DNA of 64,000 nt from Candidatus Scatomorpha stercorigallinarum (GCA_944387865.1 CALXGN010000006.1:11355-75354); one strand, 5' to 3'. Positions 12,682 through 61,250 are shown, counted from the stretch's first letter. The notes: generated from the letters alone by a model not told the origin. Program-made: numbers and translations.

Positions 12682-12820
12682 AAACGGTATTTTACCTTTT
12701 TCCTTCCGGCGAGTCAAGAAAAACCCTGACTGAAGCGCCGCTGGAGGCGAGAAAACTCACTCAAAGCAGTTTAAAACAGGGACATCCAACAAAAAATCGC
12801 AAATTTGTCTGTTTTTTATC

Positions 12821-12849
12821 TTGTAAATCGCGTCAATGTATGCTAACTT
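12821..12849 (+). promoter_or_regulatory. Candidate promoter for the cooC-like operon
   Basis: TTGTAA, 17-nt spacer, TAACTT preceded by TGc, within an AT-rich intergenic region. Confidence 0.3.
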
Positions 12850-12898
12850 ATTATCAAGCAATCTGTGCACATTATCCTAATATCCAAGGGGGGATTTG

Positions 12899-13666
12899 AT
12901 GGGTGAGAGCAAGGCGAAGATCCTGGCGCTGGCCGGCAAGGGCGGCGTTGGGAAAACTTCGCTGGCAGCGGCCATCGTCCGCGTGCTGACGGAGGACCGC
13001 CCCGGCAGCCGTATCCTGGCCATCGACGCCGACCCCGCCGTGGGGCTCTCCACGGCCCTGGGCGTGACGGTGACGGGCTCGCTGGACGATATCCGCCGCG
13101 CCGTTATAAAGAGCGCGGAGGACGGCCGCCCGCGGGAGGCCATCGAGCTGCTCAACGAGTCGCGCTTCCGCATATTCGACACGATGGTGGAGACGAACGG
13201 CTTTTCGTTCCTGGCCATCGGCCGGCCGGAGAACGAGGGCTGCTACTGCAGCGTGAACGCCTATCTGAAAGAGGTCGTGGGCATGCTCGCCAACGACTTC
13301 GACTACGTTGTAATAGACGGAGAGGCGGGCATCGAGCAGATACAGCGCCGCGTGATGGAGAAGGTGAGCCACCTGATTTTAATTTCCGACCAGAGCCGCA
13401 AGGGGACCCACGTGGCGGAGACGATAAAGCAGGTGGCGGACGAGCTGGTGATGTACGACCGAATTGGCGCGATAATAAACCGCGTGACCAACCCGGAGCT
13501 GAACAGGTTCATCTCCATCGAGGGCGTGGAAATCCTGGCCTACATAGAAGCTGACGACCAGCAGGCGGCGAACGACATACAGGGCAAGAGCGTTTTCGGT
13601 CTTGCGGAAGGTTCCAAGGTGCTCTGCGGAGTGAGAGAAGCGCTCCGGAAGATAGATATCCTATGA
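12899..13666 (+). CDS. CooC-type (CODH/ACS nickel-insertion accessory) MinD/ParA-class ATPase
   Basis: Deviant Walker A GKGGVGKTS and the CxC metal-binding motif (EGCYCSVN) characteristic of CooC. SD GGGGGG lies 5 nt before the ATG. Confidence 0.75.
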   Translation: MGESKAKILALAGKGGVGKTSLAAAIVRVLTEDRPGSRILAIDADPAVGLSTALGVTVTGSLDDIRRAVIKSAEDGRPREAIELLNESRFRIFDTMVETNGFSFLAIGRPENEGCYCSVNAYLKEVVGMLANDFDYVVIDGEAGIEQIQRRVMEKVSHLILISDQSRKGTHVAETIKQVADELVMYDRIGAIINRVTNPELNRFISIEGVEILAYIEADDQQAANDIQGKSVFGLAEGSKVLCGVREALRKIDIL

Positions 13667-13687
13667 TTATGAGAGAGGTGTGGACAT

Positions 13688-14884
13688 TTGAAAGATCTTA
13701 AGCATCTGATCTACTTTGAGAGCCTGCTTGACAGCGCGCACAACGAGCTTGTGCGTCAGGCGAAGGAGGAGGGGCAGCTCGCCCTCGGCTTCACCTGCTA
13801 CCACATGCCCGAAGTGCTTCTCAATGTGGACAACTGCTTCTCGGTCAGGCTGCGCGCGCCGAACACCGGCAGTATCGACATAGCCTCGTACTACATGTCG
13901 AACTATACCTGCGAGTATTGCCGCGCCGTCGTCGAGAGGGCCATTGAGGGCGGCTACAACTTCCTGGACGGGCTCTGCGGCGTGGACGCCTGCGCGCAGA
14001 TGAACCGCTGCATGGAGAACATTGAGCTGCTCAAGTGCATCGACAAGCCGAATTTCTTCGTGACCCACGCGGACATACCCTACAAGTACACGGACTACAC
14101 GCTCGACCACTACGTGACGCAGATGCAGAACCGCGTGCTTAACACCATGCACGAGAAGTTGGGCGTCGACATCTCCGACGCCGCGCTGCGCGACTCCGTG
14201 GCGAGGCACAACGAGATCTGCAAGATCATAACCGAGCTCGGCGAGCTGCGCAAAAAGCCCAACCCGCCCATCACGGGCTATGAGTTCCACGTCATCAACA
14301 TGGTGAGCTTCTGCTGCCCGCAGCGGCTGATCCTGCCCTACCTGAAGGAGACGCTGACGGAGGTCAAAAAGCGCAAGCCGGATGCGAAGCCCTGGTACCG
14401 CTGCCGCGTCGGCATAGTCGGCTCCGAGGTGGACGACCCGAACCTCACCAGGATGCTCGAGGAGGCCGGGGCCTTCATCGTTTTCGACCGCTTCTGCTTC
14501 GGCGCGCTGCCCGGCCGCGAGGTCATCGAGCTGAACGACGAGGAGCCCGCCCTGAGGCAGATATGCCGGCACTACCTCCTCACCAGCGAGTGTCCCCGCT
14601 TCATGTCCAACGAAAAAATCGCCCAGCGGCGCGAGACTGCCGACCGCCTTGCCCGCGAGTACTCCGCGGACGGCATAATTTACGAGAACGTGAAGTTCTG
14701 CGACTTCTGGGGCTTCGAGCGCGCGCTTGCGAGCCACGTACAGCACGAGGAGTACGGCCACCCCGTGCTCACAATAGACCGCCCGTATAATGCCCGCACC
14801 TCCGGCCAGCTCCGCACTCGCTTCCAGGCGTTTGTCGAGTCGCTGGAGATCAAGCGCATACAGCAGGGGAAGGAGGTCAAATAA
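13688..14884 (+). CDS. 2-hydroxyacyl-CoA dehydratase family protein, small (HgdB/BcrC-like) subunit
   Basis: HGD-D family signatures: FTCYHMPE near the N-terminus, many conserved Cys, and a C-terminal VKFCDFW motif. TTG start with a GAGAGGTG SD. Confidence 0.75.
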   Translation: MKDLKHLIYFESLLDSAHNELVRQAKEEGQLALGFTCYHMPEVLLNVDNCFSVRLRAPNTGSIDIASYYMSNYTCEYCRAVVERAIEGGYNFLDGLCGVDACAQMNRCMENIELLKCIDKPNFFVTHADIPYKYTDYTLDHYVTQMQNRVLNTMHEKLGVDISDAALRDSVARHNEICKIITELGELRKKPNPPITGYEFHVINMVSFCCPQRLILPYLKETLTEVKKRKPDAKPWYRCRVGIVGSEVDDPNLTRMLEEAGAFIVFDRFCFGALPGREVIELNDEEPALRQICRHYLLTSECPRFMSNEKIAQRRETADRLAREYSADGIIYENVKFCDFWGFERALASHVQHEEYGHPVLTIDRPYNARTSGQLRTRFQAFVESLEIKRIQQGKEVK

Positions 14885-16633
14885 ATGCTCAAGGCGAACA
14901 TAAACTGGATCAAGAAAAACGCGAAGAGCGACCTGAAAATCTGGAAGGACCTCATCAGCGAGGTGGATTGGAAGGACTTCGCCGGTAAAATGAAGCACAA
15001 AGCCCAGCTGGACCGCGAGCGCATCGCCGACGAGGTGAAGAGCTTCGCCGCCCTGCCTCCCAAGGAGAAGTGGGACCGCGTTATAAACGGCGAGAGGCAG
15101 CTCGGGCGGCTTTATCAGAAGGGCGCGATAGCCTTTACCCGCCGCGAGTGGAAGGGCGTTGAGAGCACTGCCCGCGACTTCTACGGCTGGCTCATCATCT
15201 GGCGCGACATGATAAAGATGGTCATGCGCGACCCGCTGACCATTGCCCTCGGCCTCTTTGAATACCGCTGGTTCAGCTCCTATCTGGCCTGCCCGGCCTT
15301 CATAGACCGCAATACCCTCGGCTTCCGCGGCCGCGCCGTGACGATGAACCACCTGCTGATGGCGGACATCTACCGCTATACGGAGGACTGCATCGCCAAG
15401 CTGCTGATGGCCGACCGCCGCCTGGGCGGCAACGACAAGATAAACAACAAGATCATGCTTTTCGACGAGATGACCATGGCGCAGATGATGGCCGGCTTCC
15501 CGGGCCTCATCGGCCTGCCCTATCAGCTGATCCCCGTGTTCCTCGTCTCCGAGCTCGACCAGCTTATCTGCATCCCCTATATCGACGCCGTGGAGAGCTA
15601 CGGCCTGCCGGCGGACACCTGCCCGGTCCCGACCAGCGAAAGCGGCAGCGCCATTGTCGACGCCCTGCCTCACTGCGGGCTCGGCTTCATTTCGACCTCC
15701 ACGCCCTGTGACGGCTCCGACATGGCAACCAGCTTCCAGGAGCGCCGCCTGAAGAAACTCGGTATCCCCACCTTCCCGCTGACTCTCCCGGTGCGTTACG
15801 ACGACGAGGACACCGTTGAGTGCGGTGCGCAGGACATGTGGCACTGCATCAAGTGGGTGGAGGACATCACCGGCGAAAAGTGGGACTGGGACCACTACTT
15901 CGAGGTCATCCGCCGCTTCAACGAGCAGACGAAGATGGAGATGGAGAAGTGGGACATGAACTCCACCCCCTATCCGCAGCTGATCGGCCCCTGCTACGAG
16001 CTTTTCCGCAAGTGGAACTACGAGATGGACGGCGGCCTCAACCCCGACGTCATGAAGACCTTCTACAAGGTCCGCAAGCTGATGTACAAGTCCTACGAGC
16101 AGCGCTGCAACCCCTACCGCCACCCGATGAAGTACCGCGCGGTGGTCTGGAGCTGCCCGGCGCACTACTACGCGAACTTCTCCAACTGGCTGGCCAACGC
16201 CTGGGGCATCGGCGTCCTGGTGGAGATGGAGAGCCTGAACTTCACCAAGCAGCTTGAGACCGAGGACCACGAGGAAGCCATCCGCGACCTGGCCCGCCTG
16301 TACGAGCGCATGGTCATGCGCAAGCACACCAACGGCGGCTATGTCCACGTGCTGGACGAGCTGTGGAAGGTCTGCGAGCAGTTCAACGCAAACTTCATCA
16401 TCATGTACCAGCACGTCTGCTGCAAGACGATGGCGGGGCTGCAGGGCCTCTTCGACGAGCAGGCGCGCGAGCGCGGGCTGCACCTCATCTGGGTCGAGCA
16501 CGACCTGATGGATCCCCGCACCGTCTCCCGCCGCGATATGCGCGCCAAGGTCTCCAACTACATGCGCGCCATTATCCAGGCCGAGCCCACGGACGAGAGC
16601 CTGATAGAGTTCGAGGACGACATCACCTGGTAA
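14885..16633 (+). CDS. 2-hydroxyacyl-CoA dehydratase family protein, enlarged (582 aa) HgdA-like subunit
   Basis: Abuts the previous stop with no gap. Motifs DTCPVP, STPCDGS and HVCCKTMAG are typical of the family. It carries an N-terminal extension of roughly 100-150 aa. Confidence 0.7.
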   Translation: MLKANINWIKKNAKSDLKIWKDLISEVDWKDFAGKMKHKAQLDRERIADEVKSFAALPPKEKWDRVINGERQLGRLYQKGAIAFTRREWKGVESTARDFYGWLIIWRDMIKMVMRDPLTIALGLFEYRWFSSYLACPAFIDRNTLGFRGRAVTMNHLLMADIYRYTEDCIAKLLMADRRLGGNDKINNKIMLFDEMTMAQMMAGFPGLIGLPYQLIPVFLVSELDQLICIPYIDAVESYGLPADTCPVPTSESGSAIVDALPHCGLGFISTSTPCDGSDMATSFQERRLKKLGIPTFPLTLPVRYDDEDTVECGAQDMWHCIKWVEDITGEKWDWDHYFEVIRRFNEQTKMEMEKWDMNSTPYPQLIGPCYELFRKWNYEMDGGLNPDVMKTFYKVRKLMYKSYEQRCNPYRHPMKYRAVVWSCPAHYYANFSNWLANAWGIGVLVEMESLNFTKQLETEDHEEAIRDLARLYERMVMRKHTNGGYVHVLDELWKVCEQFNANFIIMYQHVCCKTMAGLQGLFDEQARERGLHLIWVEHDLMDPRTVSRRDMRAKVSNYMRAIIQAEPTDESLIEFEDDITW

Positions 16634-16692
16634 TACCCTTCGCTGGGCCACTTTGAATAAAAAATATTGAATCTAATGGGAGGAAATATATA

Positions 16693-17496
16693 ATGAAGTA
16701 CTTTGGAGGGTGCGACGTAGGCTCTACCTACACCAAGGCGGTCATCCTGGACGAGACCGGCAAGATGGTGGCCAATACCACGATACGCAGCAAGATAAAT
16801 TCCGAGCAGAGCGCCATCATGGCGATGAAGGAAGTCATCGACCAGGTGCCCGAGCTCAACAGCAGCGAGGACCTCGCCTACCTCATCGGCACGGGCTACG
16901 GCCGCAACAAGGTCCCCTTCGCGGATGAGAACATCTCCGAGATCAGCTGCCACGCCATGGGCGTGCACGTCACGGACCCCAATGTCCGCGCTATCATCGA
17001 CATCGGCGGCCAGGACGTCAAGGGCATCAGCATCGATACCGACGGCACCGTTAAGAACTTCGCCATGAACGACAAGTGCTCCGCCGGCACGGGCCGCTTC
17101 TTCGAGGCCATGGCCAACGCCTTCGAGCTCAGCCTGCCGGAATTCTCCAACCTCAGCCTGACGGCCAAGAACGTCATCCCCATCACCGCCCAGTGCACCG
17201 TTTTCGCCGAGAGCGAGGTCATCACCCTCGTCGGCGAGGGCAAGCCCACCGACGAGATCGCCGCGGGCATCGAGATGGCCGTCGCCAAACGCTGCTTCGT
17301 CATGGCGAAGAAGGCCGGCGCCACCGATTCCATCACCCTCACCGGCGGCTGCGCCAAGAACGAGGGCCTGAAGCAGGCCATCGAGCACGTCCTCAAGCTG
17401 AAGGTCATCAACCTCAAGACCGACCCGCAGCTGATGGGCGCCCTGGGCGCCGCCGAGTACGCCCGCCAGAAGGGCCTGGCCAAGGCCGCCAACTGA
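16693..17496 (+). CDS. HgdC-type ATP-dependent activase (archerase; BcrA/BcrD/BadF ATPase family)
   Basis: GGCDVGSTYTKAV phosphate-1 motif. Both bridging-cluster Cys contexts are present: NDKCSAGTGRF and AQCTVFAESEV. Confidence 0.85.
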   Translation: MKYFGGCDVGSTYTKAVILDETGKMVANTTIRSKINSEQSAIMAMKEVIDQVPELNSSEDLAYLIGTGYGRNKVPFADENISEISCHAMGVHVTDPNVRAIIDIGGQDVKGISIDTDGTVKNFAMNDKCSAGTGRFFEAMANAFELSLPEFSNLSLTAKNVIPITAQCTVFAESEVITLVGEGKPTDEIAAGIEMAVAKRCFVMAKKAGATDSITLTGGCAKNEGLKQAIEHVLKLKVINLKTDPQLMGALGAAEYARQKGLAKAAN

Positions 17497-17561
17497 CCGG
17501 CGAGGGCCGGGCGCGGCCCGGCGTGACCGCACACCCTGAGATGAAAGGAATGGTCAAATAA

Positions 17562-17738
17562 ATGAAGAAAGGCTGCAAGATCTGTAAGCTGTTCAAAACG
17601 CTGTTCGGTATCATGGCGGCTGTGGTGGGCGTGCTGTTCACCATATACATGCTCAACCTGGATATGAAGCTCGTCGGCTGGCTCTATACGGTGCTCAACA
17701 AGTTCCACGACCGCAAGGTCAGGGACGTGCAGTTCTGA
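17562..17738 (+). CDS. Unannotated 58-aa single-pass membrane peptide
   Basis: MKKGCKICKLFKTLFGIMAAVVGVLFTIYML... has one clear TM helix. SD GAAAGGA lies upstream, the stop is 1 nt before the next ATG, and third positions are GC-rich. It falls below the 60-aa cut-off of the ORF track. Confidence 0.5.
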   Translation: MKKGCKICKLFKTLFGIMAAVVGVLFTIYMLNLDMKLVGWLYTVLNKFHDRKVRDVQF

Positions 17739-17739
17739 T

Positions 17740-18468
17740 ATGGAGCTTTACGATCCCACAATCCGCGAGGTACTGGGCAGGCTTTCCGCCAACGGCCGCA
17801 GCTGGGATTACGACCCCTCCGCCGCCTGGCGCGACCTGGGGCAGAACGAGCTTGTCCTGGGGCGGGACGCCGCCTATGAGCTGGGCGGCGGCAGCAACCC
17901 CGCCGGCAACTTCACCTGCGTGACCACGGACGGCGCCCTGGTGGGCGCGGACCGGGTGACGCTCGTGGGCCCGGACATCGGCGAGATCCGCGCGGACTGC
18001 CCCTTCTGCCGCATCGCCCTGCTGCACGTGAACGACATCAGCGGCGACGACCAGGAGGCCTTCAGCGCCATCCGCAACATGGAGTTCGTCAAGTACCATG
18101 TGTTCCCGGAGGGATACATGATGCGTATTTCCCCGGAAAACCGCCGCGAGCAGGTGCGCGTTTCCAGGCGCGCGGTGAAGAAGGGCCTCAGCTTCCGCCA
18201 TATCGGCAACAGCTTTATCAAAAAGTACAAGGAGAACAGCCTTATCGACCACGCGCAGATCATTTTCGTCACCGGCGACAGGCAGCTCTGCCAGGAGCTC
18301 GCCGAAACGGCGAAAAAAGTGGACGCGATAACGCTGACGCTCAACCACATCATGGACGGCCTCGCCACCGACTGCAGCGTGTGTTCGTTCAAGCCCGTCT
18401 GCGACGAGGTGGAGGGCCTGAAGGAGCTGCACTTCAAAAAGGGCGAAAAGCCGATGGACGTCAAGTAA
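17740..18468 (+). CDS. Acetyl-CoA synthase (AcsB/CdhC) middle-domain homologue, truncated before the Ni-Ni site
   Basis: Blocks ELGGG, VTLVGPDIGEI, VRVSRRAVKKGLSFRHIGNSFIKKY, IIFVTGD and the terminal CSVCSFKPVC resemble ACS/CdhC as I recall those sequences. Not checked by computation. Confidence 0.6.
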   Translation: MELYDPTIREVLGRLSANGRSWDYDPSAAWRDLGQNELVLGRDAAYELGGGSNPAGNFTCVTTDGALVGADRVTLVGPDIGEIRADCPFCRIALLHVNDISGDDQEAFSAIRNMEFVKYHVFPEGYMMRISPENRREQVRVSRRAVKKGLSFRHIGNSFIKKYKENSLIDHAQIIFVTGDRQLCQELAETAKKVDAITLTLNHIMDGLATDCSVCSFKPVCDEVEGLKELHFKKGEKPMDVK

Positions 18469-18510: not shown

Positions 18511-18861
18511 TCATATGTCGTTTTCGCGGCTGTGCCTGGGGCAGTCGCGGCGGCAGGAGCCGCAGGGCCGCTGGCGGGGGCAGACCTCATAGTCCCCGCC
18601 GCCGATGACCAGCTCGCGGCCGGCGACGAGGCAGAGCGCGAGCTTGTGCCGCGCGGAGTTATAGATGGCCTGCACGGTGCTGCGGCTGATCTGCATCTGC
18701 GCCGCCGCCTCCTCCTGGGTCAGGCCCTCGAGGTCGATGAGGCGGATGCACTCATACTCGTCCACGGCCATGGCCAGGCGCTCGCCGGCCGCCGAGCGGG
18801 GGCCGAACTCCGTGTGCAGAGGCAGCTCGCAGACGCGCCGGCATTTCCGCGGCCGGGGCAT
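18511..18861 (-). CDS. DUF134 (UPF0251) putative DNA-binding protein with C-terminal Cys cluster
   Basis: N-terminal MPRPRKCRRVC signature, a sigma-70 region-4-like HTH (LTQEEAAAQMQISRSTV), and the tail CPRQRPCGSCRRDCP. Start trimmed to ATG 18861, which overlaps the upstream stop (TGATG). Confidence 0.75.
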   Translation of the reverse strand: MPRPRKCRRVCELPLHTEFGPRSAAGERLAMAVDEYECIRLIDLEGLTQEEAAAQMQISRSTVQAIYNSARHKLALCLVAGRELVIGGGDYEVCPRQRPCGSCRRDCPRHSRENDI

Positions 18862-19292
18862 CAGCCGTGGCAGCAGCCGTGGCCATGGCCGTGGCCGCCG
18901 TGGTGCTCCTCGCAGCCGGCGTCGCCGTGGTGATGGCCGCACTCATGGCCCTCGCCGTGGTGATGGTCGCAGTTGGCGTCGCTGCTGTAGCTGAGCGTGC
19001 CCGCCAGCAGGGCCTCCACCGCCGCGTCCGCGCTGCCCTGCACGCCTGCGTAGAGCTGTATGCCCGCCTCGGCCAGGGCCATGCGCGCGCCGCCGCCCAG
19101 GCCGCCGCAGATGAGGGCGTCCACGCCGTGGGAGCGCAGGAAGCCGGCCAGGGCCCCGTGGCCAAAGCCGCCCGTGGGCAGGATGGCGCTGTTGACGACC
19201 TTGCCGTCCTCGACGTCGTAGAGCTTGAACTGCTCGGTGTGGCCAAAGTGCTGGAACACGCTGCCGTTTTCGTAAGTGACTGCTATTTTCAT
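18861..19292 (-). CDS. NifB/NifX-family (dinitrogenase FeMo-cofactor-binding fold) protein with His/Cys-rich tail
   Basis: MKIAVTYENGSVFQHFGHT... matches the NifX-like fold. The 35-aa tail is CDHHHGEGHECGHHHGDAGCEEHHGGHGHGHGCCHG. Confidence 0.75.
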   Translation of the reverse strand: MKIAVTYENGSVFQHFGHTEQFKLYDVEDGKVVNSAILPTGGFGHGALAGFLRSHGVDALICGGLGGGARMALAEAGIQLYAGVQGSADAAVEALLAGTLSYSSDANCDHHHGEGHECGHHHGDAGCEEHHGGHGHGHGCCHG

Positions 19293-19309
19293 GTTTGCTA
19301 CCTCCGTGG

Positions 19310-19356
19310 TTATTGGCTTATGCCAATAATATAGCACGCAAACCGGCATATGTCAA
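19310..19356 (-). promoter_or_regulatory. Promoter plus palindromic operator for the NifX-like/DUF134 operon
   Basis: Minus strand TTGACA (19356-19351), 17-nt spacer, TATATT (19333-19328) with TGc extension. The perfect palindrome ttattggc-ttat-gccaataa (19310-19329) overlaps the -10 box. Confidence 0.5.
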
Positions 19357-40797: not shown

Positions 40798-43700
40798 ATG
40801 AAATCGAGGATGAAAAAGCTCCTGGCCGCGGCGCTGGCGCTCTGCCTGATAGCCGCAATGGTCCCGGGTGCAGCATTGGCGGCGGATACGGGGACGGGAG
40901 TAGCCTCTACTACTGACCCAGAAGACGTCACGAAAACGAAATATTATGAAACGTTAAGTGCAGCATTTATTGCACTTTCAGATGCAAGAATAACGGACAA
41001 AACGGTCACCGTCACGGCCAACTGCTCCGTTAATGGAACTTTGACGGTTGCCACCGGCCAGAGGCTTGTTGTCCCCACCGGCCTTACTTTGACTGTCGCT
41101 AATGGCGACCATCTCACGATTGCCGGCAAAGCCAACTTCTCCGGTAATGTCACCGTCGAGGCGGGCGGCGAGCTCATCTTTGACACCAGCAGCACTGTTA
41201 CCGTCAGCGGCAGAATCACGGTTGGCGGCTCGGAGTACCGCACCGGCGGCAAGCTGACTGCAAAAACCACCTTTGGTTGCAGCGGCAGCCTTGTTGTGAA
41301 CGGCGCTGCAACCGTTAAAGGCGGCCAGCAGCTTGGCGCAGTGACGGTCGGCAATGGCGGCAAGCTGTACACTGAGGGCGAGCTTGTGATAACGGGCGCC
41401 TCCACTGTTAACGGCGAACTCAAAGTTGACGACAAGCTCCTCGTTTCCGGCAGCGGCAGCCTGACTGTGAGCGGTGAGGCTACGGTCATAAACGAACTCC
41501 AGGTCGAGTCGGGAGCAAGCGTCAACGTCACCGGCACGCTTGCGTCTGGCAGCACAGACGTGAACGGCTCCCTTACCGCCGGTGATGGCTATGAATCGAC
41601 TGGCGATACCGACATCCACGGCAGCTTCACTTTCAACGGCTCCAGCATTGGCTACACTGTCAATGTTGAAGGCGATATGGATATCACCAGCAATGTCGCA
41701 CTTGGCGACCATGGTAAGCTCAACATCGAAAATGGCGGCAGCCTGACAGTCGCGGGCAAACTTGATGAGAGTAGTGGCAAACTGGCTGTTAGCGCGGGCG
41801 CTACTGCAACCATTGAGGGCAGCCTTGTGGTGAAGAGCAATCATAATCCAGATGCAGGAACCATTCGCTTTGAGGCTGGTTCCGAGTACAGCAAGGGCAG
41901 CGACCTCATCATTGGCGCGAACCGCATGGACGTTGAGAGCGGCAGCGTTTCTCTCACCAACGGAGAATATACCGTCAATTCCGGCTCCGTTGCCTCCATC
42001 AACGGCCCAAGGACTGCCAACAGCACGAGTACATATAAAATGGCCGAGAAGATCACGGTCAATGGTACGTTGAATATTTCCTATCCTACCGAGTTCAATG
42101 ATGAGCTGGGTATTGGATCCAGCGGCAAGGTCGTCGTAGAAAACGGCATCTGGATGTCTATTGAGAACAACTCCCGTATAACCGGTAGCGGCGACGTTCA
42201 GGTCAATTATCTGTTCTATTACCGTTCCAAGCAGGATGCGGATTCCGCAATCGATATAACGCTTGGCAGCAACGGTTCGGTCTACTGCAACAATCAGTTC
42301 CTGAACGACAATATTACCAACGGCACTGCTGCCAATAACACCATGGCCCCGGATAAAAACACTTATTCTTACTACTGGACATACAGCCGCGGACGCACTT
42401 TCAACATCACCCCGAGCGTCGGCAACAACGGCGAGGCCAACATCCCGACCTCTTCCCCCGAGAACGAGACCGTTACCTTCAACGCCAGCCCGGACGACGG
42501 CTATATGGTCGATCCAGCCAATACCTACTATACGGTAGGAACCGACGATGAACATGTTCGTATTGCGGTAGTGGGCAATGAATGCTCCTTCGTGATGCCG
42601 AGCAATAACGTCACTGTTCATGTTGGCTTCAAAAAGGCCGAGAACAGCTCCACCACCACTGAGGGCAACATCACGGTCGTCACCAACCACAACGGCAACG
42701 GCACTGTGAACGCCAGCATCAACGGGCGTGTCGTCACCGTCACCGTCCGCGCGAACACCAATTACGTCATCAACACCGTCAGCATCGCCGGCAGGGGCCA
42801 GACCGTCGCCACCGACGCCAAGAGCGGCACCTACAGCTACACCGTACCCGGCACTGGCAACGCCACCGTCGAGGTCTATGTCACCTTCAAGAGCGACGAC
42901 TTCGAGGTCACCCTCACCAACTACACCTATGACGACGGGCGCATCAGCCTGAGCACCGGCACGACCACCACCGGCCGCTATGCCGAGGGCAAGCGCGTTT
43001 ACATCTACGCTTACCCCGACAGGGACTTCTACGTCCGCAGCCTGACCATCACCCGCACCGATAACGGTCAGACCGTGAACTACTACGAGAGCAGTTCCAG
43101 CGACGACGTGTTCTACTTCGACATGCCGGCCAGCGACGTCACCGTCAGGGCCTACTTCACCGACGGCGTCTATGAGATCGCCACCGACATCGACGGCAGC
43201 GGCCGCCTGACCATCACCGGCGAGGACGGCAACACCACCGACGTCGCCGAAGAGGGCGAGGAGATCCGCATCACCGCCAGCCCCAGCAACAACTACCGCC
43301 TGGGCGACCTCTATGTCACCTACACCGACTCCGACGACGAGGACCAGGTCATCTACCCCGAGGTCGAGTATAAGAACAACGGCAACGTCGATTACTACTG
43401 GTTCGAGATGCCCGAGTACGACGTGGAGATCTACGCCGACTTCGGCGAGGGCGATTACGTCGCCTGGATCGACCGCAGCGACATGAAGAATGGCACCATC
43501 CGCGTCAGCCCCAACGTGGCCGACGAGGACGACACCGTCAGCATTTACGTCACGCCCGACACGGGCTATCAGCTGGACGAGCTCATCGTTGAGGACGAGG
43601 ACGGCCACGACGTGACCACCACTTCCCTCGCCAGCGGCACGCGCTACACCTTCCGTATGCCGGACAGCGACGTGACGGTCACCGCCACCTTCAAGTCCCG

Positions 43701-44259
43701 CAGCTACAGCAGCAACTTCACCGACGTGCCGCGCTATGAGTGGTACTACGAGGCTGTGTCCTACGTGGCCAGCGAGGGCCTGATGAACGGCGTGAGCACC
43801 ACGCAGTTCAACCCGAACGGCACCGCCAGCCGCGCGCAGATCGTCACCATCCTGTGGCGTCTGGCCGGCGAGCCCAGCGCCCTCACCGGCGCGTTCACGG
43901 ACGTGCCCGCGGGGCAGTACTACTCCACCGCCGTGGCCTGGGCCTCCCGCCAGGGCATCGTCACCGGCGTGGGCAACAACCGCTTTGAGCCAAACAGCAA
44001 CATCACCCGCGAGCAGCTGGCCGTGATACTTTACCGCTACGCGCAGGACGCCGGCTACACCACCAGCGCCAGCGCCAACATCACGGGCTATTATGACTAC
44101 GCGCGCGTGAATTCCTACGCCCGCACGGCTATGAGCTGGGCGGTCGGCGCCGGCCTCATCACCGGCACCAGCACCACCACACTCAGCCCGCAGGACACCG
44201 CCACCCGCGCCCAGGTGGCCACCATACTGATGCGCTTCTGCGAGAACATCGCGAAGTAA
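40798..44259 (+). CDS. Large cell-surface protein: signal peptide, beta-helix-like N-terminal region, five InlB-B-repeat-like modules, three SLH domains
   Basis: Signal peptide MKSRMKKLLAAALALCLIAAMVPGAALA. Repeated G-x-L-x-V-x-G strands. About 85-aa modules end in MP(x)SDVTV..F. The C-terminal part holds 3 SLH repeats (FTDVP...). Confidence 0.85.
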   Translation: MKSRMKKLLAAALALCLIAAMVPGAALAADTGTGVASTTDPEDVTKTKYYETLSAAFIALSDARITDKTVTVTANCSVNGTLTVATGQRLVVPTGLTLTVANGDHLTIAGKANFSGNVTVEAGGELIFDTSSTVTVSGRITVGGSEYRTGGKLTAKTTFGCSGSLVVNGAATVKGGQQLGAVTVGNGGKLYTEGELVITGASTVNGELKVDDKLLVSGSGSLTVSGEATVINELQVESGASVNVTGTLASGSTDVNGSLTAGDGYESTGDTDIHGSFTFNGSSIGYTVNVEGDMDITSNVALGDHGKLNIENGGSLTVAGKLDESSGKLAVSAGATATIEGSLVVKSNHNPDAGTIRFEAGSEYSKGSDLIIGANRMDVESGSVSLTNGEYTVNSGSVASINGPRTANSTSTYKMAEKITVNGTLNISYPTEFNDELGIGSSGKVVVENGIWMSIENNSRITGSGDVQVNYLFYYRSKQDADSAIDITLGSNGSVYCNNQFLNDNITNGTAANNTMAPDKNTYSYYWTYSRGRTFNITPSVGNNGEANIPTSSPENETVTFNASPDDGYMVDPANTYYTVGTDDEHVRIAVVGNECSFVMPSNNVTVHVGFKKAENSSTTTEGNITVVTNHNGNGTVNASINGRVVTVTVRANTNYVINTVSIAGRGQTVATDAKSGTYSYTVPGTGNATVEVYVTFKSDDFEVTLTNYTYDDGRISLSTGTTTTGRYAEGKRVYIYAYPDRDFYVRSLTITRTDNGQTVNYYESSSSDDVFYFDMPASDVTVRAYFTDGVYEIATDIDGSGRLTITGEDGNTTDVAEEGEEIRITASPSNNYRLGDLYVTYTDSDDEDQVIYPEVEYKNNGNVDYYWFEMPEYDVEIYADFGEGDYVAWIDRSDMKNGTIRVSPNVADEDDTVSIYVTPDTGYQLDELIVEDEDGHDVTTTSLASGTRYTFRMPDSDVTVTATFKSRSYSSNFTDVPRYEWYYEAVSYVASEGLMNGVSTTQFNPNGTASRAQIVTILWRLAGEPSALTGAFTDVPAGQYYSTAVAWASRQGIVTGVGNNRFEPNSNITREQLAVILYRYAQDAGYTTSASANITGYYDYARVNSYARTAMSWAVGAGLITGTSTTTLSPQDTATRAQVATILMRFCENIAK

Positions 44260-50065: not shown

Positions 50066-50185
50066 TACCCCCGGTGTAGTACGGAAATAATTTTAGAAAT
50101 TTTGCGGAATTTTCCTTTTCCCGGGCTTTCTTGATGCAACTTTGATGCAATCGTGGTATATTATCAGCGATGGGGGGTGTGTACC

Positions 50186-50839
50186 TTGAGTACGATTCTC
50201 ATCGTTGAGGACGAAAAACCGATCAATGACCTGATAAATATGAACCTCACGCAGGCCGGATACGCCTGCGTATGCGCGTATGACGGGGTAGCAGCCGCCA
50301 ATCTGCTGGAGCGCGAGCGCTTCGACCTGGTGCTGCTGGACATCATGCTCCCGGGCATCGACGGCTATGAGCTGCTCGACTACATAAAGCCCACGGAGAC
50401 GCCCGTCATCTTCATCACCGCCAAGGGCAGCATGCAGGACAAGGTGCGCGGCCTGCGCCTGGGCGCGGACGATTACCTGGTAAAGCCCTTTGAGATAGTG
50501 GAGCTGCTCGCGCGCGTGGAGGCCGTGCTGCGCCGCGCGGGGAAGGGGCAGGAGGAGCTGTTCATCGACGGGCTGCGCATCGACACCCGCTCGCGCACCG
50601 TGTTCCGCGGCAGCCGCGAGATCAGCCTGACGATGAAGGAGTTCGACCTGCTGCTGCTCTTCGTGCGCAACCGCAACATCGCCCTGTTCCGCGAGACGAT
50701 ATACGAGCGCGTCTGGGACAGCGAATATATGGGAGATTCCCGCACCGTTGACCTCCACGTGCAGCGCCTGCGCAAAAAGCTGCACTGGGAGGACAAGCTG
50801 AAGGCCGTATACAAGGTGGGATACAGACTTGAGATTTAA
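50186..50839 (+). CDS. OmpR-family response regulator
   Basis: Receiver domain (ILIVEDE...DLVLLDIMLPG) plus a winged-helix output domain. TTG 50186 has a GGGGGTG SD; the ORF is open from 50153. Confidence 0.88.
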   Translation: MSTILIVEDEKPINDLINMNLTQAGYACVCAYDGVAAANLLERERFDLVLLDIMLPGIDGYELLDYIKPTETPVIFITAKGSMQDKVRGLRLGADDYLVKPFEIVELLARVEAVLRRAGKGQEELFIDGLRIDTRSRTVFRGSREISLTMKEFDLLLLFVRNRNIALFRETIYERVWDSEYMGDSRTVDLHVQRLRKKLHWEDKLKAVYKVGYRLEI

Positions 50840-51791
50840 GACCTCTCTGGAAGGCTTCCCCGTACACCTGCTGCTGATGTCCGGCTGCACCATCGCCGTG
50901 GCCATCTGCGCCGCGGCCTGCGCCGGCTACGCCACCGGCACGCTCAGCGCCAGCTACGGGGGGTACCTGGCCTTCATGCTCGGCGCTTCCGCCCTCGGCG
51001 GGCTGCTGCTGGCCTATTCCGCCTGGCTGCACAGCGGCCGCGAGCGGCGGGAACTGGAACGCTGCCGCGCGCAGGCGGAGGCCATGGGCGCGGAGATAAA
51101 AAACCTTGAGGACGCCGCCGGGCGGCGCGAGGAGTTCATCGCCTCCTTCGCCCACGAGCTGAAAACGCCGCTGACGGCCATCATCGGCTATGCGGACATG
51201 CTGCGCTCGATGGAGCTCTCGCCCAAGAACCGCTTCACCGCGGCGGGCTACATATTTTCCGAGGGCAAGCGGCTGGAGGCGCTGTCGCTGAAGCTGCTGG
51301 ACCTGATCGTCGCCGGCAAGCAGGGCGTGGAGCGCAGGCGCTTCGACGCGCCGTACCTCATCCGCGAGGTGGCGGCCGTGGCTGTGCCCTCGCTGGCGGC
51401 GGACGGCATGAAGCTGGACATGCACTGGGAGCCGGGCGAGGTGGAGATCGAGCCCGACCTCTTCAAAACGCTGCTGATAAACCTCATCGACAACGCGCGC
51501 AAGGCCAGCCGCCGCGGGCAGAGCGTGGAGCTCTCCGGCCGCCGGGAGGACGGCGGCTACGCCTTTTACGTCACCGACCACGGGCGCGGGATGCGCCGCG
51601 AGGACCTCGACAAGATAACCGAGCCCTTTTACATGATAGACAAGTCGCGCTCCCGCGCGCAGAACGGCGCCGGGCTGGGCCTGGCGCTCTGCCAGCGCAT
51701 CGCCGAGCTGCACGGCACCAGGCTCGAATACGAGAGCGAGCCCGGCAAAGGCACCACGGTGCGCGTGCTGCTCGCGGACGGTGAGCCGTGA
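50829..51791 (+). CDS. Sensor histidine kinase, intramembrane-sensing type
   Basis: Two TM helices with almost no external loop, H-box FAHELKTPL, N and G boxes. The TTG start overlaps the regulator stop; a later ATG at 50877 is also possible. Confidence 0.85.
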   Translation: MRFKTSLEGFPVHLLLMSGCTIAVAICAAACAGYATGTLSASYGGYLAFMLGASALGGLLLAYSAWLHSGRERRELERCRAQAEAMGAEIKNLEDAAGRREEFIASFAHELKTPLTAIIGYADMLRSMELSPKNRFTAAGYIFSEGKRLEALSLKLLDLIVAGKQGVERRRFDAPYLIREVAAVAVPSLAADGMKLDMHWEPGEVEIEPDLFKTLLINLIDNARKASRRGQSVELSGRREDGGYAFYVTDHGRGMRREDLDKITEPFYMIDKSRSRAQNGAGLGLALCQRIAELHGTRLEYESEPGKGTTVRVLLADGEP

Positions 51792-52534
51792 GGGCGCGCG
51801 GCCGGGGCGCCGGGGCCTATATCATCGCGGCGCTGGTGATGCTCGCCTGCGCGCTGCTGCCGCTGCTCTTTATGCCGCGCTCGCAGGCGCCGCTGCCCTA
51901 CGGCGAGGCTGAGCAGCTGGGCACGACCCGCAGCCAGAGGGCGGAGCTCTTCACGCGCTATTTTACGGACGGCGAGCTGGAGCGGCGCGGATTCGAACCC
52001 ACGATGGACGAGCGCGAGGGCGTCATCGCCTGCCGCGCGCTGGCGAACAGCGTGCTCACGGGCCTGTGCGCGGACAGTACGCTGCCGGAGCCGGCGGACG
52101 CGCAGATAAGCTACTTCTCCGTCGCCGACGGGGAGGCGCAGATCCGCGTGATGGAGTTCAACCAGCGCTGGACGGGGGACTGGAGCAACTGGTTTTCCAT
52201 CCACATCGACCTGGACACGCAGGAGGTCTACCGCGCGTATATCAGCGAGCAGTGCCTGAAGAACGTTGAGGACTACAGCCTGCCGCTGCCGCGCGCGGCG
52301 GACACGGCGGAGCGCTGGTTCTCGCTGCTCGGCTGCGAGGGCGGGGCGGCCGGCGCGGACGCCGAGGACCCGCTGCCGGCGGAGACGACGGACTACGCGC
52401 AGTCCATGGAGACCGACTTCGGCATATATTACAGCGCCCCGGAGGGGGAGGCGCTGCGCTACATGGTGCACCTGAAGTACTATGCGGACGAGTACCCCTC
52501 GCTTATCAGAGACATGATGTTCACATTGCAGTGA
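51788..52534 (+). CDS. Membrane-anchored hypothetical protein
   Basis: Its GTG start overlaps the kinase stop (GTGA). It has one N-terminal TM helix, and I recognise no family. Confidence 0.5.
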   Translation: MRARGRGAGAYIIAALVMLACALLPLLFMPRSQAPLPYGEAEQLGTTRSQRAELFTRYFTDGELERRGFEPTMDEREGVIACRALANSVLTGLCADSTLPEPADAQISYFSVADGEAQIRVMEFNQRWTGDWSNWFSIHIDLDTQEVYRAYISEQCLKNVEDYSLPLPRAADTAERWFSLLGCEGGAAGADAEDPLPAETTDYAQSMETDFGIYYSAPEGEALRYMVHLKYYADEYPSLIRDMMFTLQ

Positions 52535-52546
52535 GGTGGGAGAGGG

Positions 52547-53314
52547 ATGAAAACACAGGCCATTGCGGGTCTCATAATGCTCATATTCGTCATGCTCACG
52601 CTGCTCTCGGCGAGCTGGATGGCCGTCGGGACGGACGGCCGGGAGGGCGACCCGCTCTCCGCCGCCGCGGCGGCAGAGGCGGCGGCCGCCGCCGTCAGCT
52701 CACAGCCCGAGGATGACGCGGAGGCAACGCCGTCCATGCCGGCCTTTGACCGCACGGACTGGCGGCTGCGCCTGGTGAACGCCAATTACGAGCTGCCGGC
52801 GGACTTCGCCGTGGAGACGGCGGACGTGGAGGGCTACCTCTTCGACGCGCGGGCGGCGGAGGCACTGCAGTCCATGCTGGACGGCGGGCGCGCGGCCGGC
52901 GTGGACCTTATCCTCACCTCCGCCTACCGTACATACGACTACCAGCAGGGGCTTTTCCAGAACAAGGTGCAGCGCGTGATGGCCGAGCGGGGCATATCGC
53001 AGGCGGAGGCCGAGCCCATCGCCGCTGAGGAAGTGGCGCGCCCGGGGATGAGCGAGCACTGCCTGGGGCTGGCGGTTGACATAATAACGAGCGACTACAC
53101 CACGCTTGACTATGGCTTCGCCCAGACGGACGCCGCCAAGTGGCTCTATGAGCACTGCGCGGAATACGGCTTCATCCTCCGCTATCCGGAGGACAAGACG
53201 GACATCACCGGCATCATCTATGAGCCCTGGCACTTCCGCTATGTGGGCGAGGAGGCCGCGGCATACATCATGGAAAACGGCCTCACGCTGGAGGAGTTCC
53301 TCGGCGTTGCATAA
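52547..53314 (+). CDS. VanY-type D-alanyl-D-alanine carboxypeptidase (M15B)
   Basis: N-terminal TM anchor, SEHCLGLAVD (SxHxxGxAxD) and EPWHFRYVG motifs. Confidence 0.85.
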   Translation: MKTQAIAGLIMLIFVMLTLLSASWMAVGTDGREGDPLSAAAAAEAAAAAVSSQPEDDAEATPSMPAFDRTDWRLRLVNANYELPADFAVETADVEGYLFDARAAEALQSMLDGGRAAGVDLILTSAYRTYDYQQGLFQNKVQRVMAERGISQAEAEPIAAEEVARPGMSEHCLGLAVDIITSDYTTLDYGFAQTDAAKWLYEHCAEYGFILRYPEDKTDITGIIYEPWHFRYVGEEAAAYIMENGLTLEEFLGVA

Positions 53315-53320
53315 GGGGTC

Positions 53321-53373
53321 TTGACAAAAGCCTCCTACAGTTGTAGTATAATGTATACTACAACTGTAGGAGG
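53321..53373 (+). promoter_or_regulatory. blaI-type promoter with perfect palindromic operator
   Basis: TTGACA (53321-53326), 17-nt spacer, TAGTAT. The 43-nt palindrome cctcctacagttgtagtata-atg-tatactacaactgtaggagg (53331-53373) contains TACA/TGTA cores, and its right arm supplies the GGAGG SD. Confidence 0.6.
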
Positions 53374-53380
53374 TATTTTT

Positions 53381-53740
53381 ATGCGCCTTACGGACGCCGA
53401 ATGGGCGGTGCTGGATGCGCTGTGGGATGCCGGCGAGGCCGCGCTGGGGGACATCGCTGCCCGGCTGAAGGACGAGCGCGGCTGGAACAAGAACACAGCC
53501 TACACTTATCTCACACGCATGGCGGCCAAGGGCCTGGTGGGCATCGACCGCGAGCGGGAAAAGCCCTACAGCGCGGCGGTGACGCGCGAGGACTGCGCCC
53601 GTGCGGAGCGCGGCGAGCTGCTCGAACGGGTGTATAACGGTGCGGCGGGCGACCTGATAGCCGCTTTTTTGAAGGAGTCGCACATCTCCCGCGAGGAGGC
53701 CGCGCGGCTGCGCCGCCTGCTCGACGAGATGGAGGTGTAG
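53381..53740 (+). CDS. blaI: BlaI/MecI/CopY-family transcriptional repressor
   Basis: Winged-helix N-terminus LTDAEWAVLDALW...NTAYTYLTRMAAKGLV. Start trimmed to ATG 53381. Confidence 0.85.
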   Translation: MRLTDAEWAVLDALWDAGEAALGDIAARLKDERGWNKNTAYTYLTRMAAKGLVGIDREREKPYSAAVTREDCARAERGELLERVYNGAAGDLIAAFLKESHISREEAARLRRLLDEMEV

Positions 53741-53743
53741 CGC

Positions 53744-59857: not shown

Positions 59858-60487
59858 TCAGAGTTTGGCGGCCAGCTCGTTGAGGAGCGCCTCGGCCTTG
59901 TCGATATTGAAGATGCCGCAGGCGCAGGGCTCGGCCAGCTTGACGGCGGCTTTGCGCGCGGTGGTCCGGCCGGCGCGGATGTCGTCGATCATCTTGGAGA
60001 CCAGGTTGGCGGAGATCATGCCGTGCCCGCACATGGTGGTAATCTCCATTATCTTCTCATCGGGCAGCTTGTCGATCTTGCCCCAGATGCCGAGCGAGAG
60101 ATCGACGGAGTGACGCTGGATGCCGGCCTTTTTTGCGCAGCAGTCCACGTCGTCCACCAGGCCGGAGACGACCACGGAGTAGCCGTAGTCGGCCTCCTTG
60201 AGGGCCTTCATGACGGCGATGAGGGTGTCGCGGTCGCTGAAAACGGCGTGTATCATCGGTGCGTCGGGGGAGATGTTCTCGCGCAGCTCCTCAACGGTGT
60301 TCAGCGCCAGGTTGCCGATGCCGATGCCGCCCATGTTCACGGGGTGGAAGGGGGCCAGCAGGTCGATGTATTTTTTGAACGTCTCGACGCTGTCCTGGCT
60401 GTTCACGCCCCTGGCGGGCATGATGAGCACGACGTAGTCGTTGGTGCGGCCGTTCTCGCTCTTTACGCGGTGCAGAGTGTGGGTCAT
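59858..60487 (-). CDS. Hypothetical protein (209 aa) co-transcribed with the oxidoreductase operon
   Basis: Overlaps the upstream gene by 4 nt. The C-terminal part carries MCGHG...PCACG, a possible metal or cluster site. I recognise no family. Confidence 0.6.
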   Translation of the reverse strand: MTHTLHRVKSENGRTNDYVVLIMPARGVNSQDSVETFKKYIDLLAPFHPVNMGGIGIGNLALNTVEELRENISPDAPMIHAVFSDRDTLIAVMKALKEADYGYSVVVSGLVDDVDCCAKKAGIQRHSVDLSLGIWGKIDKLPDEKIMEITTMCGHGMISANLVSKMIDDIRAGRTTARKAAVKLAEPCACGIFNIDKAEALLNELAAKL

Positions 60488-61236: not shown

Positions 61237-61250
61237 GTTTACCTCCTTTG

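Follow-up and report, generated by a model that had tools for sequence, protein, structure and literature searches.

A widespread six-gene operon of gut bacteria that joins a predicted double-cubane Fe-S enzyme to a CooC-like ATPase and an acetyl-CoA-synthase-like protein

We have analysed a stretch of 64,000 nucleotides (nt) from Candidatus Scatomorpha stercorigallinarum (GCA_944387865.1, CALXGN010000006.1:11355-75354), a member of what protein records give as an Oscillospiraceae genus of the chicken gut; this whole stretch, at its full length, is called the window. It carries six open reading frames (ORFs) on one strand which encode a CooC-like ATPase, the two subunits of an enzyme of the 2-hydroxyacyl-CoA dehydratase (HGD) family, an activase, a short membrane peptide and a protein resembling the middle domain of acetyl-CoA synthase (ACS). 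These ORFs and the features that delimit them are the following (aa, amino acids):

12718-12895, + strand: AT-rich leader/promoter region, with a GGGGGG ribosome-binding site ahead of ATG 12899
12896-13666, + strand: CooC-like ORF, 256 aa from TTG 12896 or 255 aa from ATG 12899
13688-14884, + strand: small HGD-D subunit ORF, 398 aa
14885-16633, + strand: large HGD-D subunit ORF, 582 aa
16693-17496, + strand: HgdC/HadI/MbdQ-type activase ORF, 267 aa
17562-17738, + strand: membrane peptide ORF, 58 aa
17740-18468, + strand: ACS-like ORF, 242 aa
18477-18506, no strand assigned: GC-rich hairpin of 13 bp, between the ACS-like stop codon and a convergent DUF134 gene

The gaps between the six ORFs are 21, 0, 59, 65, and 1 nt, and their GC content at third codon positions (GC3) is 0.84-0.93, the same as that of the real genes of the window. 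The reading of an initial annotation, made from the sequence alone, that these co-directional ORFs form a single operon holds, and its family calls (HGD-D, BcrAD_BadFG, and CdhC) were all significant by hidden Markov model (HMM) search, with the CooC motifs present as well. For the CooC-like gene the identity stood and the start did not: it is probably ATG 12899, just behind the ribosome-binding site, giving a product of 255 aa, since the deposited homologues have this length and the 256-aa form is missing from the protein collection. The hairpin is likely a bidirectional terminator that closes the operon and is common to the DUF134 gene. No Rfam riboswitch match was found in the 178-nt leader (7 kb were scanned), and the weak Rfam matches elsewhere in these 7 kb were well under gathering thresholds, most of them over terminator hairpins. 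A promoter-like site at 16667-16694 was considered as a second transcript start and dropped, as its -10 element overlaps the activase start codon. There is also an antisense ORF of 994 aa (13667-16651, - strand) that covers both HGD genes; its GC3 is under the real-gene range and it is an artefact of base composition, as are several further long ORFs on the antisense strand of this high-GC window. The public protein collection already contains five of the six proteins as exact sequences, from Candidatus Scatomorpha records, under generic names ("2-hydroxyacyl-CoA dehydratase", "hgdC activator", "hypothetical protein"), and one cluster member of CooC-like length is named there "CO dehydrogenase maturation factor".

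To describe how the gene set is conserved, we scanned one genome per species and, separately, metagenomes, the latter scan being anchored on a distant family member through a six-sequence alignment. A relative of the ACS-like protein was found in at least 562 species genomes, mostly gut Oscillospiraceae (human, chicken, and ruminant) with some Lachnospiraceae, so that the system, first described as an orphan, is widespread rather than rare. Brotocaccenecus cirricatena CLA-AA-H272 (locus L060) and Vescimonas are carriers in culture. Gene order was tabulated for the 51 loci with enough upstream sequence:

28 of 51 loci: CooC-like, small HGD subunit, large HGD subunit, activase, (peptide), ACS-like, in this order
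10 of 51 loci: CooC-like and ACS-like alone
12 of 51 loci: ACS-like, with the other five genes absent within 5.6 kb upstream
1 of 51 loci: CooC-like, activase, peptide, ACS-like

Three of the 12 loci with no other gene upstream of the ACS-like one have an activase and a peptide about 10 kb away, and another (L039) has a CooC-like gene just downstream. The flanks of the cluster vary, from holB/ricT in the window to ribosomal protein genes, tRNA synthetases and others elsewhere, and the six-gene order is kept in metagenome loci whose ACS-like protein has no more than 32-45% identity; in one example (L134) the order is retained with a large subunit 28% and an activase 60% identical to those of the window. 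The HGD enzyme is genetically locked to a CooC-like ATPase, a membrane peptide, and an ACS-like protein with three invariant cysteines (Cys3). The CooC-like/ACS-like set, with or without the small nickel protein CooT (see below), is in turn a separable module, since the pair occurs without HGD genes.

Equally informative is the company that these genes do not keep. The Pfam-annotated genes of the window include no CoA-transferase, acyl-CoA dehydrogenase, electron transfer flavoprotein (ETF), carbon monoxide dehydrogenase (CODH), full ACS, corrinoid protein, or methyltransferase, as the initial annotation had stated; these genes are housekeeping ones, transporters, and regulators, plus a 2-oxoacid:ferredoxin oxidoreductase 41 kb off. 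All of these missing families are likewise absent from the four related loci annotated with Pfam (L002, L165-L167), and neither a CoA-transferase nor acyl-CoA dehydrogenase, ETF, CODH, corrinoid or methyltransferase genes are among the recurrent neighbour families of related loci. We found no description of this gene combination in the literature, in agreement with what had been supposed at the outset.

The small subunit matches the HGD-D family at an E-value of 2.5e-88, and its nearest solved relatives are BzdN (1.6e-26), the double-cubane cluster protein (DCCP; 1.6e-18), and HadC (1.4e-16). It contains a seven-cysteine motif formed by C37, C50, C75, C102, C270, C302, and C338, of which all except C50 align exactly with cysteines of DCCP and BzdN, while C50 falls within a few residues of the second DCCP cysteine. 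The 168 residues that separate C102 from C270 fit the motif published for DCCP, CX19CX18-19CX29CX166-170CX32-34CX32C (PMC7317905), and HadC has no cysteine at the C5 position of the motif, where the small subunit has one. All seven are at least 97% conserved in 65 orthologues plus paralogues, and no other cysteine of the subunit is kept throughout. In class I benzoyl-CoA reductase, BzdN holds a double-cubane [8Fe-9S] cluster through six cysteines and BzdO a catalytic [4Fe-4S]-OH2 cluster through three, the catalytic residues of BzdO including His131 and Glu65 (Fuchs et al. 2025, PMC11971306). By its cysteine motif the small subunit should be a BzdN-like protein, predicted to carry a double-cubane [8Fe-9S] cluster.

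The large subunit, with approximately 1,500 homologues in the protein database, matches HGD-D at 4.3e-34 along residues 232-556 only. Its AlphaFold2 model (predicted TM-score, pTM, 0.81) was compared by Foldseek with solved structures, and HadB (2.4e-12, target TM-score 0.76), BzdO (1.3e-11), and MbdO (1.5e-10) ranked above DCCP, BzdN, and HadC; a helical N-terminal extension of about 150 aa stands outside the common fold and has no match. The sole universal cysteines among 68 sequences (25-94% identity) are C246, C275, and C513. In alignments C246 falls on the third cysteine of the DCCP motif, C275 on the fourth, and C513 on a cysteine of MbdO; a profile-profile alignment between small and large subunits, of probability 0.45, was used just for these three, which other alignments back. 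Three residues past C275 there is an invariant serine, S278, where BzdO has its catalytic His131. Taken together, sequence and model point to a catalytic subunit of HadB/BzdO type with a predicted substrate-facing [4Fe-4S] cluster held by C246, C275, and C513. A second (hetero)metal site at C424/H427/H481 was also considered; the three residues are invariant among orthologues, but when paralogues and distant members are pooled C424 falls to 81% and H427 under 95%, and the site was discarded as a family feature.

Both subunits score under the cut-offs of the NCBIfam models. The best NCBIfam model for both is "double_cubane" (NF040772), at 131 bits for the small and 30 bits for the large subunit against a cut-off of 350; the HadB/HadC models gave 17-63 bits (cut-offs 700-750), and of the bzdN/bcrC models TIGR03190 (bzdN) gave 86.5 (cut-off 453.8) and TIGR02263 65.9 (cut-off 421).

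The activase scores 4.7e-55 with BcrAD_BadFG and 212 bits with TIGR00241 (cut-off 125), and among proteins in the PDB it matches MbdQ (6.7e-62), HadI (2.4e-56), and HgdC (2.8e-56). Both cysteine contexts reported initially are intact, C129 (17077-17079) in NDKC and C168 (17194-17196) in CTVFAESE, and align with MbdQ and HadI. From this alignment the protein is a putative HgdC-type, ATP-dependent electron injector, with C129 and C168 as its predicted cluster-bridging residues. The window and all the related loci have just one activase gene each, and its identity is 81-98% at loci where that of the ACS-like protein is 36-86%, a degree of conservation that would fit one activase serving several partners. 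A natural fusion of 852 aa (P0169) joins a large HGD subunit, 73% identical to that of the window, to a BcrAD_BadFG activase domain, which supports direct contact of the activase with the large-subunit side of the enzyme.

The 58-aa ORF that follows is a real conserved gene, with 55 orthologues, and by its sequence it would encode a single-pass membrane peptide: one hydrophobic helix (17589-17654) is followed by a tail (17655-17735) with a conserved NLDxK...NxxxDRK motif, NKFHDRK in the window. Each of the orthologues ends 2-6 nt ahead of the ACS-like start, judging from tblastn hit ends, and in the window the peptide stop lies 1 nt ahead of it, an abutment that suggests translational coupling.

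At the other end of the operon, the CooC-like ATPase has a deviant Walker A motif, AGKGGVGKTS (residues 13-22, nt 12932-12961), and a CxC metal motif, NEGCYCSV (nt 13232-13255). Its best solved relative is CooC1 (3kje), the CYC of which aligns with G-C116-Y-C118. A 12-member family profile matched CooC1 at 73 bits along its full length (residues 5-233), while MinD, ArsA, and Get3 reached at most 43 bits (MinD, the next best) through the P-loop alone. C116 and C118 are 100% conserved in 73 sequences, the Walker A glycines G14 and G17 at least 95%, and the entire motif is invariant in a 12-sequence alignment. By profile score, the ATPase groups with CooC and not with MinD/ParA.

The ACS-like protein matches Pfam CdhC (PF03598) at 42.6 bits (cut-off 24) and NCBIfam ACS models at only 34-41 bits against cut-offs of 356-809. 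The match extends over residues ~40-195 of the 242 aa, aligning to ACS ~330-485, so that the middle-domain homology proposed in the initial annotation stands by sequence and fold for this part of the protein and not for its whole length. With a model of pTM 0.75, all 22 significant Foldseek matches were ACS (best 3e-9; next match E~0.7), and we conclude from sequence and model that the protein has the predicted fold of the ACS middle (A2) domain. A2 is the main acetyl-CoA-binding domain of ACS, where a Trp stacks against the adenine and a basic patch lies opposite the diphosphate (bioRxiv 10.1101/2024.08.05.606187; PMC12289521). The RVSR/K basic stretch (nt 18151-18189) is the best-conserved segment between the family and ACS, Arg429 corresponding to R140. 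An exhaustive profile search gave 769 clusters at 50% identity, essentially all of them stand-alone proteins of ~240 aa.

What distinguishes this family is its C-terminal motif, D-C212-x2-C215-x5-C221-DEVEG...H231 (nt 18364-18435), in which C212, C215, and C221 are invariant down to 26% identity; C60 is kept in closer relatives only and the CPFC pair (C87, C90) is not conserved. The A3-domain CGC motif is not found in the protein, which ends at residue 242. We considered the cysteine tail as a remnant of the ACS A-cluster, C212 lying at an offset of about ACS 501-506, and rejected this, given that the search with the tail was null (see below) and the profile alignment ends at ACS 482.

Searches for nickel chaperones with HMMs covered all 167 loci. 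In 23 of them an adjacent pair of genes, for CooT and a His-rich DUF8180 protein, lies by the cluster, and a further one has CooT alone:

CooT loci: L012, L013, L015-L017, L035, L037, L042, L048, L056, L059, L063, L072, L073, L075, L083
CooT loci, continued: L089, L090, L092 (CooT alone), L093, L159, L164-L166

The pair is found in three placements, divergent and upstream of the CooC-like gene (as in L165 and L166), directly downstream of the ACS-like gene on the same strand, or downstream on the opposite strand, and CooT is present, too, where the cluster consists of the CooC-like and ACS-like genes alone (L092, L093). In the minimal locus L092 the surrounding genes encode FeoB, Rrf2, MntP, and glutathione peroxidase, and no enzyme that could be a client is seen close by. 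The CooT assignment is confirmed by the Pfam model at 62 bits (cut-off 27), with the N-terminal Met-Cys present; for CooT, nickel binding by Cys2 has a Kd of 9 nM, and CooJ is another, His-rich, Ni binder (PMC6006190). In function DUF8180, with a His-rich N-terminus and a helical C-terminus, looks analogous to CooJ, its His tract being at the other end of the protein. Dehydratase or activase partners go unmentioned in a 2026 survey of the genes around CODH (PMC13056359). The nickel idea put forward initially is strengthened by these chaperones, which accompany the cluster in many genomes. Since the CooC-like/ACS-like pair exists also without HGD genes, and CooT and the His-rich protein adjoin the cluster, the ACS-like protein is more likely to be the chaperone client than the HGD active site.

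Two other gene families recur beside the cluster, and only these two: a flavoenzyme of the old yellow enzyme (OYE)/enoate-reductase type and a [FeFe]-hydrogenase-like gene. The former (Oxidored_FMN + Pyr_redox_2), which is not in the window, adjoins the cluster up- or downstream in 16 genome loci and several metagenome loci, belongs to two subfamilies, and may be a partner in the pathway, with an enoyl or dienoyl product as its substrate:

L061, 3041-5101, - strand: OYE-type flavoenzyme
L002, 712-2985, - strand: OYE-type flavoenzyme
14 further genome loci: OYE-type flavoenzyme

The [FeFe]-hydrogenase-like gene (Fe_hyd_lg_C and ferredoxin domains) is divergent from the two-gene CooC-like/ACS-like module in a very abundant human-gut clade (L001, L018-L020, L022, L024-L026, L030, L031, and ~30 human-gut metagenome loci within L099-L142). 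It was dropped as a clue to this module, as the clade is a narrow one of 75-97% identity in which synteny may reflect relatedness. L150 has a paralogous HGD pair downstream as well. Such a second HGD pair, without an activase of its own, often adjoins the cluster, its small subunit ~50% and its large subunit ~30% identical:

L002, 10394-13245, - strand: second, paralogous HGD pair
L028, L056, L058, L071, L077, L078, L079, L085, L089, L098, L132, L134, L140, L149, L151: also a second HGD pair

The seven-Cys and three-Cys sets are retained in these pairs, which, having no activase of their own, suggest that one activase serves two enzymes.

How could these parts work together? We favour, with moderate confidence, an operon for an ATP-driven, very-low-potential Fe-S radical enzyme together with a nickel-handling accessory module, of which the enzyme part is well supported by homology and the accessory part we infer from gene linkage. 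By its motifs, the enzyme resembles a BzdNO-type heterodimer served by a single HgdC-type activase. The label "dehydratase-like" first given to it proved too narrow, the BzdNO-type reductases being nearer than the 2-hydroxyacyl-CoA dehydratases, and the link to double-cubane proteins suggested at the same time is supported by the full seven-Cys motif. A homodimeric activase, with a [4Fe-4S] cluster bridged by C129/C168, would inject one electron at the expense of ATP hydrolysis; this would enter the 398-aa subunit, whose double-cubane cluster would act as a relay as in BzdN, and pass on to the three-Cys [4Fe-4S] cluster of the 582-aa catalytic subunit. With one iron left open, the latter cluster could bind and reduce a carbonyl or thioester substrate, and a ketyl-radical reduction or a dehydration might start there, as in BzdO and HadB. 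The CooC-type ATPase, in many genomes with CooT and the His-rich protein, would load a metal, most likely nickel, into the invariant Cys3(His) tail of the ACS-like protein, which may be tethered to the membrane by the 58-aa peptide. Because it retains part of the ACS CoA-binding domain, the ACS-like protein would probably handle a CoA-linked ligand or dock on the enzyme. The role first imagined for it, as a scaffold or a channel serving the HGD active site, is less likely, since the CooC-like/ACS-like module exists independently.

Several points weigh against this proposal. The cysteine tail is modelled at low confidence, a search with its 57 residues gave no ACS match at E up to 10, and the three cysteines could equally bind a [4Fe-4S] cluster or zinc. 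Trp418 of Moorella thermoacetica ACS, which we take to be equivalent to the CoA-stacking Trp405 of Clostridium autoethanogenum, aligns with an invariant methionine, M127, so CoA binding by the ACS-like protein is uncertain; and with no CoA ligase or transferase linked, a thioester substrate is only an analogy. Neither CooT nor DUF8180 was found in the 64 kb of the window, and the CooC-like protein could have as its client a CODH whose gene lies in another part of the genome. The clusters of DCCP and BzdNO form in Escherichia coli without dedicated chaperones, so the HGD part is not obviously in need of CooC.

A bolder version, which we regard as unlikely though worth stating, would make the ACS-like Cys3 protein a nickel protein not recognised before, which CooC, CooT, and the His-rich chaperone would load and which would work with the double-cubane reductase. 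A minimal Ni-thiolate site might make or cleave an acyl-CoA thioester, replacing the absent CoA-transferase, or the archerase/double-cubane machinery might reduce the nickel centre to a super-low-potential state, with parallels in how methyl-coenzyme M reductase (MCR) and the corrinoid iron-sulfur protein (CoFeSP) are activated in ATP-dependent reactions. If true, this would be a new nickel enzyme class, abundant in animal guts.

Other explanations have to be considered too. The enzyme might be an ordinary 2-hydroxyacyl-CoA dehydratase that serves the fermentation of amino acids or lactate, with the genes for its CoA-transferase and enoyl-CoA reductase located elsewhere and the CooC-like and ACS-like genes being unrelated neighbours that serve CODH or another enzyme. 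HGD-D subunits with a single HgdC-type activase are indeed the classic layout of such dehydratases, HadB is the top structural match of the large subunit, OYE/enoate-reductase-type flavoenzymes flank the cluster in the 16 genome loci mentioned, and the CooC-like/ACS-like pair can exist without HGD genes. Nevertheless we find this improbable: the small subunit has the seven-Cys motif and is nearer BzdN and DCCP than HadC, the HadB/HadC models give 17-63 bits against cut-offs of 700-750, and the operon opens with the CooC-like gene and closes with the ACS-like one, the HGD and activase genes lying between them, an order kept at identities as low as 32% and among unrelated flanks. Moreover, the apparently coupled peptide and ACS-like genes come straight after the activase, and no CoA-transferase was seen in any inspected neighbourhood.

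The proximity to BzdN could instead be taken at face value, as a class-I-benzoyl-CoA-reductase-like enzyme, dearomatising or enoyl/dienoyl-forming, that acts on dietary aryl-CoA, with OYE enzymes finishing the reaction and the CooC-like/ACS-like proteins as accessories. We judge it just as improbable. BzdN and MbdQ are the nearest solved relatives of the small subunit and the activase, and OYE-type enzymes, which also partner benzoyl-CoA-reductase-like proteins in anaerobic naphthoyl-CoA degradation, recur beside the cluster. Furthermore, BzdNO has exactly this pairing of a double-cubane with a three-Cys subunit (PMC11971306), but the operon has one activase gene where benzoyl-CoA reductase has two different ATPase subunits, an invariant S278 where BzdO has the catalytic His131 (PMC11971306), and a 150-aa extension of the large subunit that BzdO lacks; the bzdN/bcrC models gave 66-87 bits against cut-offs >420, and genes for aryl-CoA ligase, ferredoxin, or dienoyl-CoA hydratase are not linked to it. 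The least probable alternative, in our opinion a quite doubtful one, is a DCCP-like enzyme that reduces small non-CoA molecules (acetylene-, azide-, or hydroxylamine-type, or in detoxification) and whose clusters are supplied or protected by the ACS-like and CooC proteins. This would make the lack of a CoA-activating enzyme natural, and would agree with the seven-Cys motif, with "double_cubane" being the top NCBIfam model for both subunits and with the metal-homeostasis and redox-stress genes around the minimal module in L092. However, the scores of 131 and 30 bits are far under the 350-bit cut-off, DCCPs are one-subunit homodimers while here a distinct HadB/BzdO-like catalytic subunit with a predicted open-site [4Fe-4S] is always paired, and this large subunit most resembles CoA-ester-binding ones.

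Some other genes of the window deserve mention. The four-gene 2-oxoacid:ferredoxin oxidoreductase cluster (59858-63352, - strand: POR_N/PFOR_II, TPP_enzyme_C, a Fer4 protein, and a 209-aa protein without family) is a possible source of acyl-CoA and reduced ferredoxin, though 41 kb from the operon. Convergent to the operon (18511-19349, - strand) there are a DUF134 regulator and a 162-aa protein of the NifX/Nitro_FeMo-Co family with a strikingly His/Cys-rich C-terminal tail, CDHHHGEGHECGHHHGDAGCEEHHGGHGHGHGCCHG, which might be a metal-binding substitute where CooT/DUF8180 are absent near the operon; the pair was rejected as part of the system, being kept only in the two closest relatives (L005, L006). 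A surface protein of 1153 aa with S-layer homology (SLH) domains (40798-44259, + strand) has a GC content of 0.57-0.59, against 0.645 for the window, and a strongly negative GC skew, and its gene may be horizontally acquired or compositionally atypical. Finally, a response regulator, a histidine kinase, a VanY-type D,D-carboxypeptidase, and a BlaR1/M56 sensor-peptidase (50153-55690, + strand) look like a module that senses and resists cell-wall antibiotics.

To our knowledge, no chemistry in biology is more reducing than that of the archerase-driven enzymes, for which few classes of substrates are known. The operon stands for a large, strongly conserved, and uncharacterised branch of such enzymes, and the link of a BzdNO-type enzyme to a nickel-chaperone toolkit and an ACS fragment is new for this enzyme family. 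Its substrate, once known, would reveal a reductive transformation carried out by common gut bacteria, and the CooC-like/ACS-like module could show roles of CooC and CooT outside CODH and whether an ACS middle domain can act alone.

Among the systems already described, close ones are the class I benzoyl-CoA reductases (BCR), BzdNO with BzdPQ from Aromatoleum (PDB 8S02) and MbdONPQ (PDB 9GAI), which are likewise heterodimers of two HGD-D folds, one subunit with the six/seven-Cys [8Fe-9S] motif and the other with a three-Cys open-site [4Fe-4S] (features which here are read from sequence motifs), and have ASKHA-type ATPases with a bridging [4Fe-4S]. They differ in that BzdPQ/BcrAD are two different ATPase subunits whereas the window operon has one activase gene, in the catalytic His131 of BzdO, which is Ser278 in a large subunit that has in addition the 150-aa N-terminal extension, and in the ferredoxin, CoA-ligase, and downstream ring-pathway genes of BCR systems, not present in the window operon. 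Conversely, none of the bzd, bcr, or mbd clusters has been reported with the CooC-like, ACS-like, and membrane-peptide genes found here. The dehydratases HadBC/HadI, HgdAB/HgdC, FldBC/FldI, and LcdAB share with the operon two HGD-D subunits and a single homodimeric activase, but HadC has a single cluster where the small subunit of the window has the full double-cubane cysteine set, and their linked CoA-transferase and acyl-CoA dehydrogenase/ETF genes have no counterpart here. With DCCP and its reductase DCCP-R from Carboxydothermus hydrogenoformans (PDB 6ENO, 7YYL) the operon has in common the seven-Cys spacing and an ATP-dependent reductase partner; the DCCP homodimer, however, holds relay and active site in one type of subunit, while in the window there is a separate catalytic subunit, encoded by an abutting gene.

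The accessory genes have their own relatives. The A2 fold and the RVSK basic stretch are common to AcsB/CdhC and the ACS-like protein, but ACS has the A1 and A3 domains and the Cys-Gly-Cys Ni-Ni site, all lacking in the ACS-like protein, which is always alone at ~240 aa, with Met in place of the CoA-stacking Trp and a Cys3 tail unlike ACS. As in the CooC/CooT/CooJ system of CODH and in AcsF of ACS, there is an ATPase with a deviant Walker A and a CxC motif, accompanied in many related loci by CooT (with its Cys2) and by a His-rich protein, which here is DUF8180 with an N-terminal His tract rather than CooJ. CooC is normally encoded with its client, cooS or acsB, and neither is in the window or in the four Pfam-annotated related loci; the candidate client linked to it here is the 240-aa, ACS-A2-like Cys3 protein.

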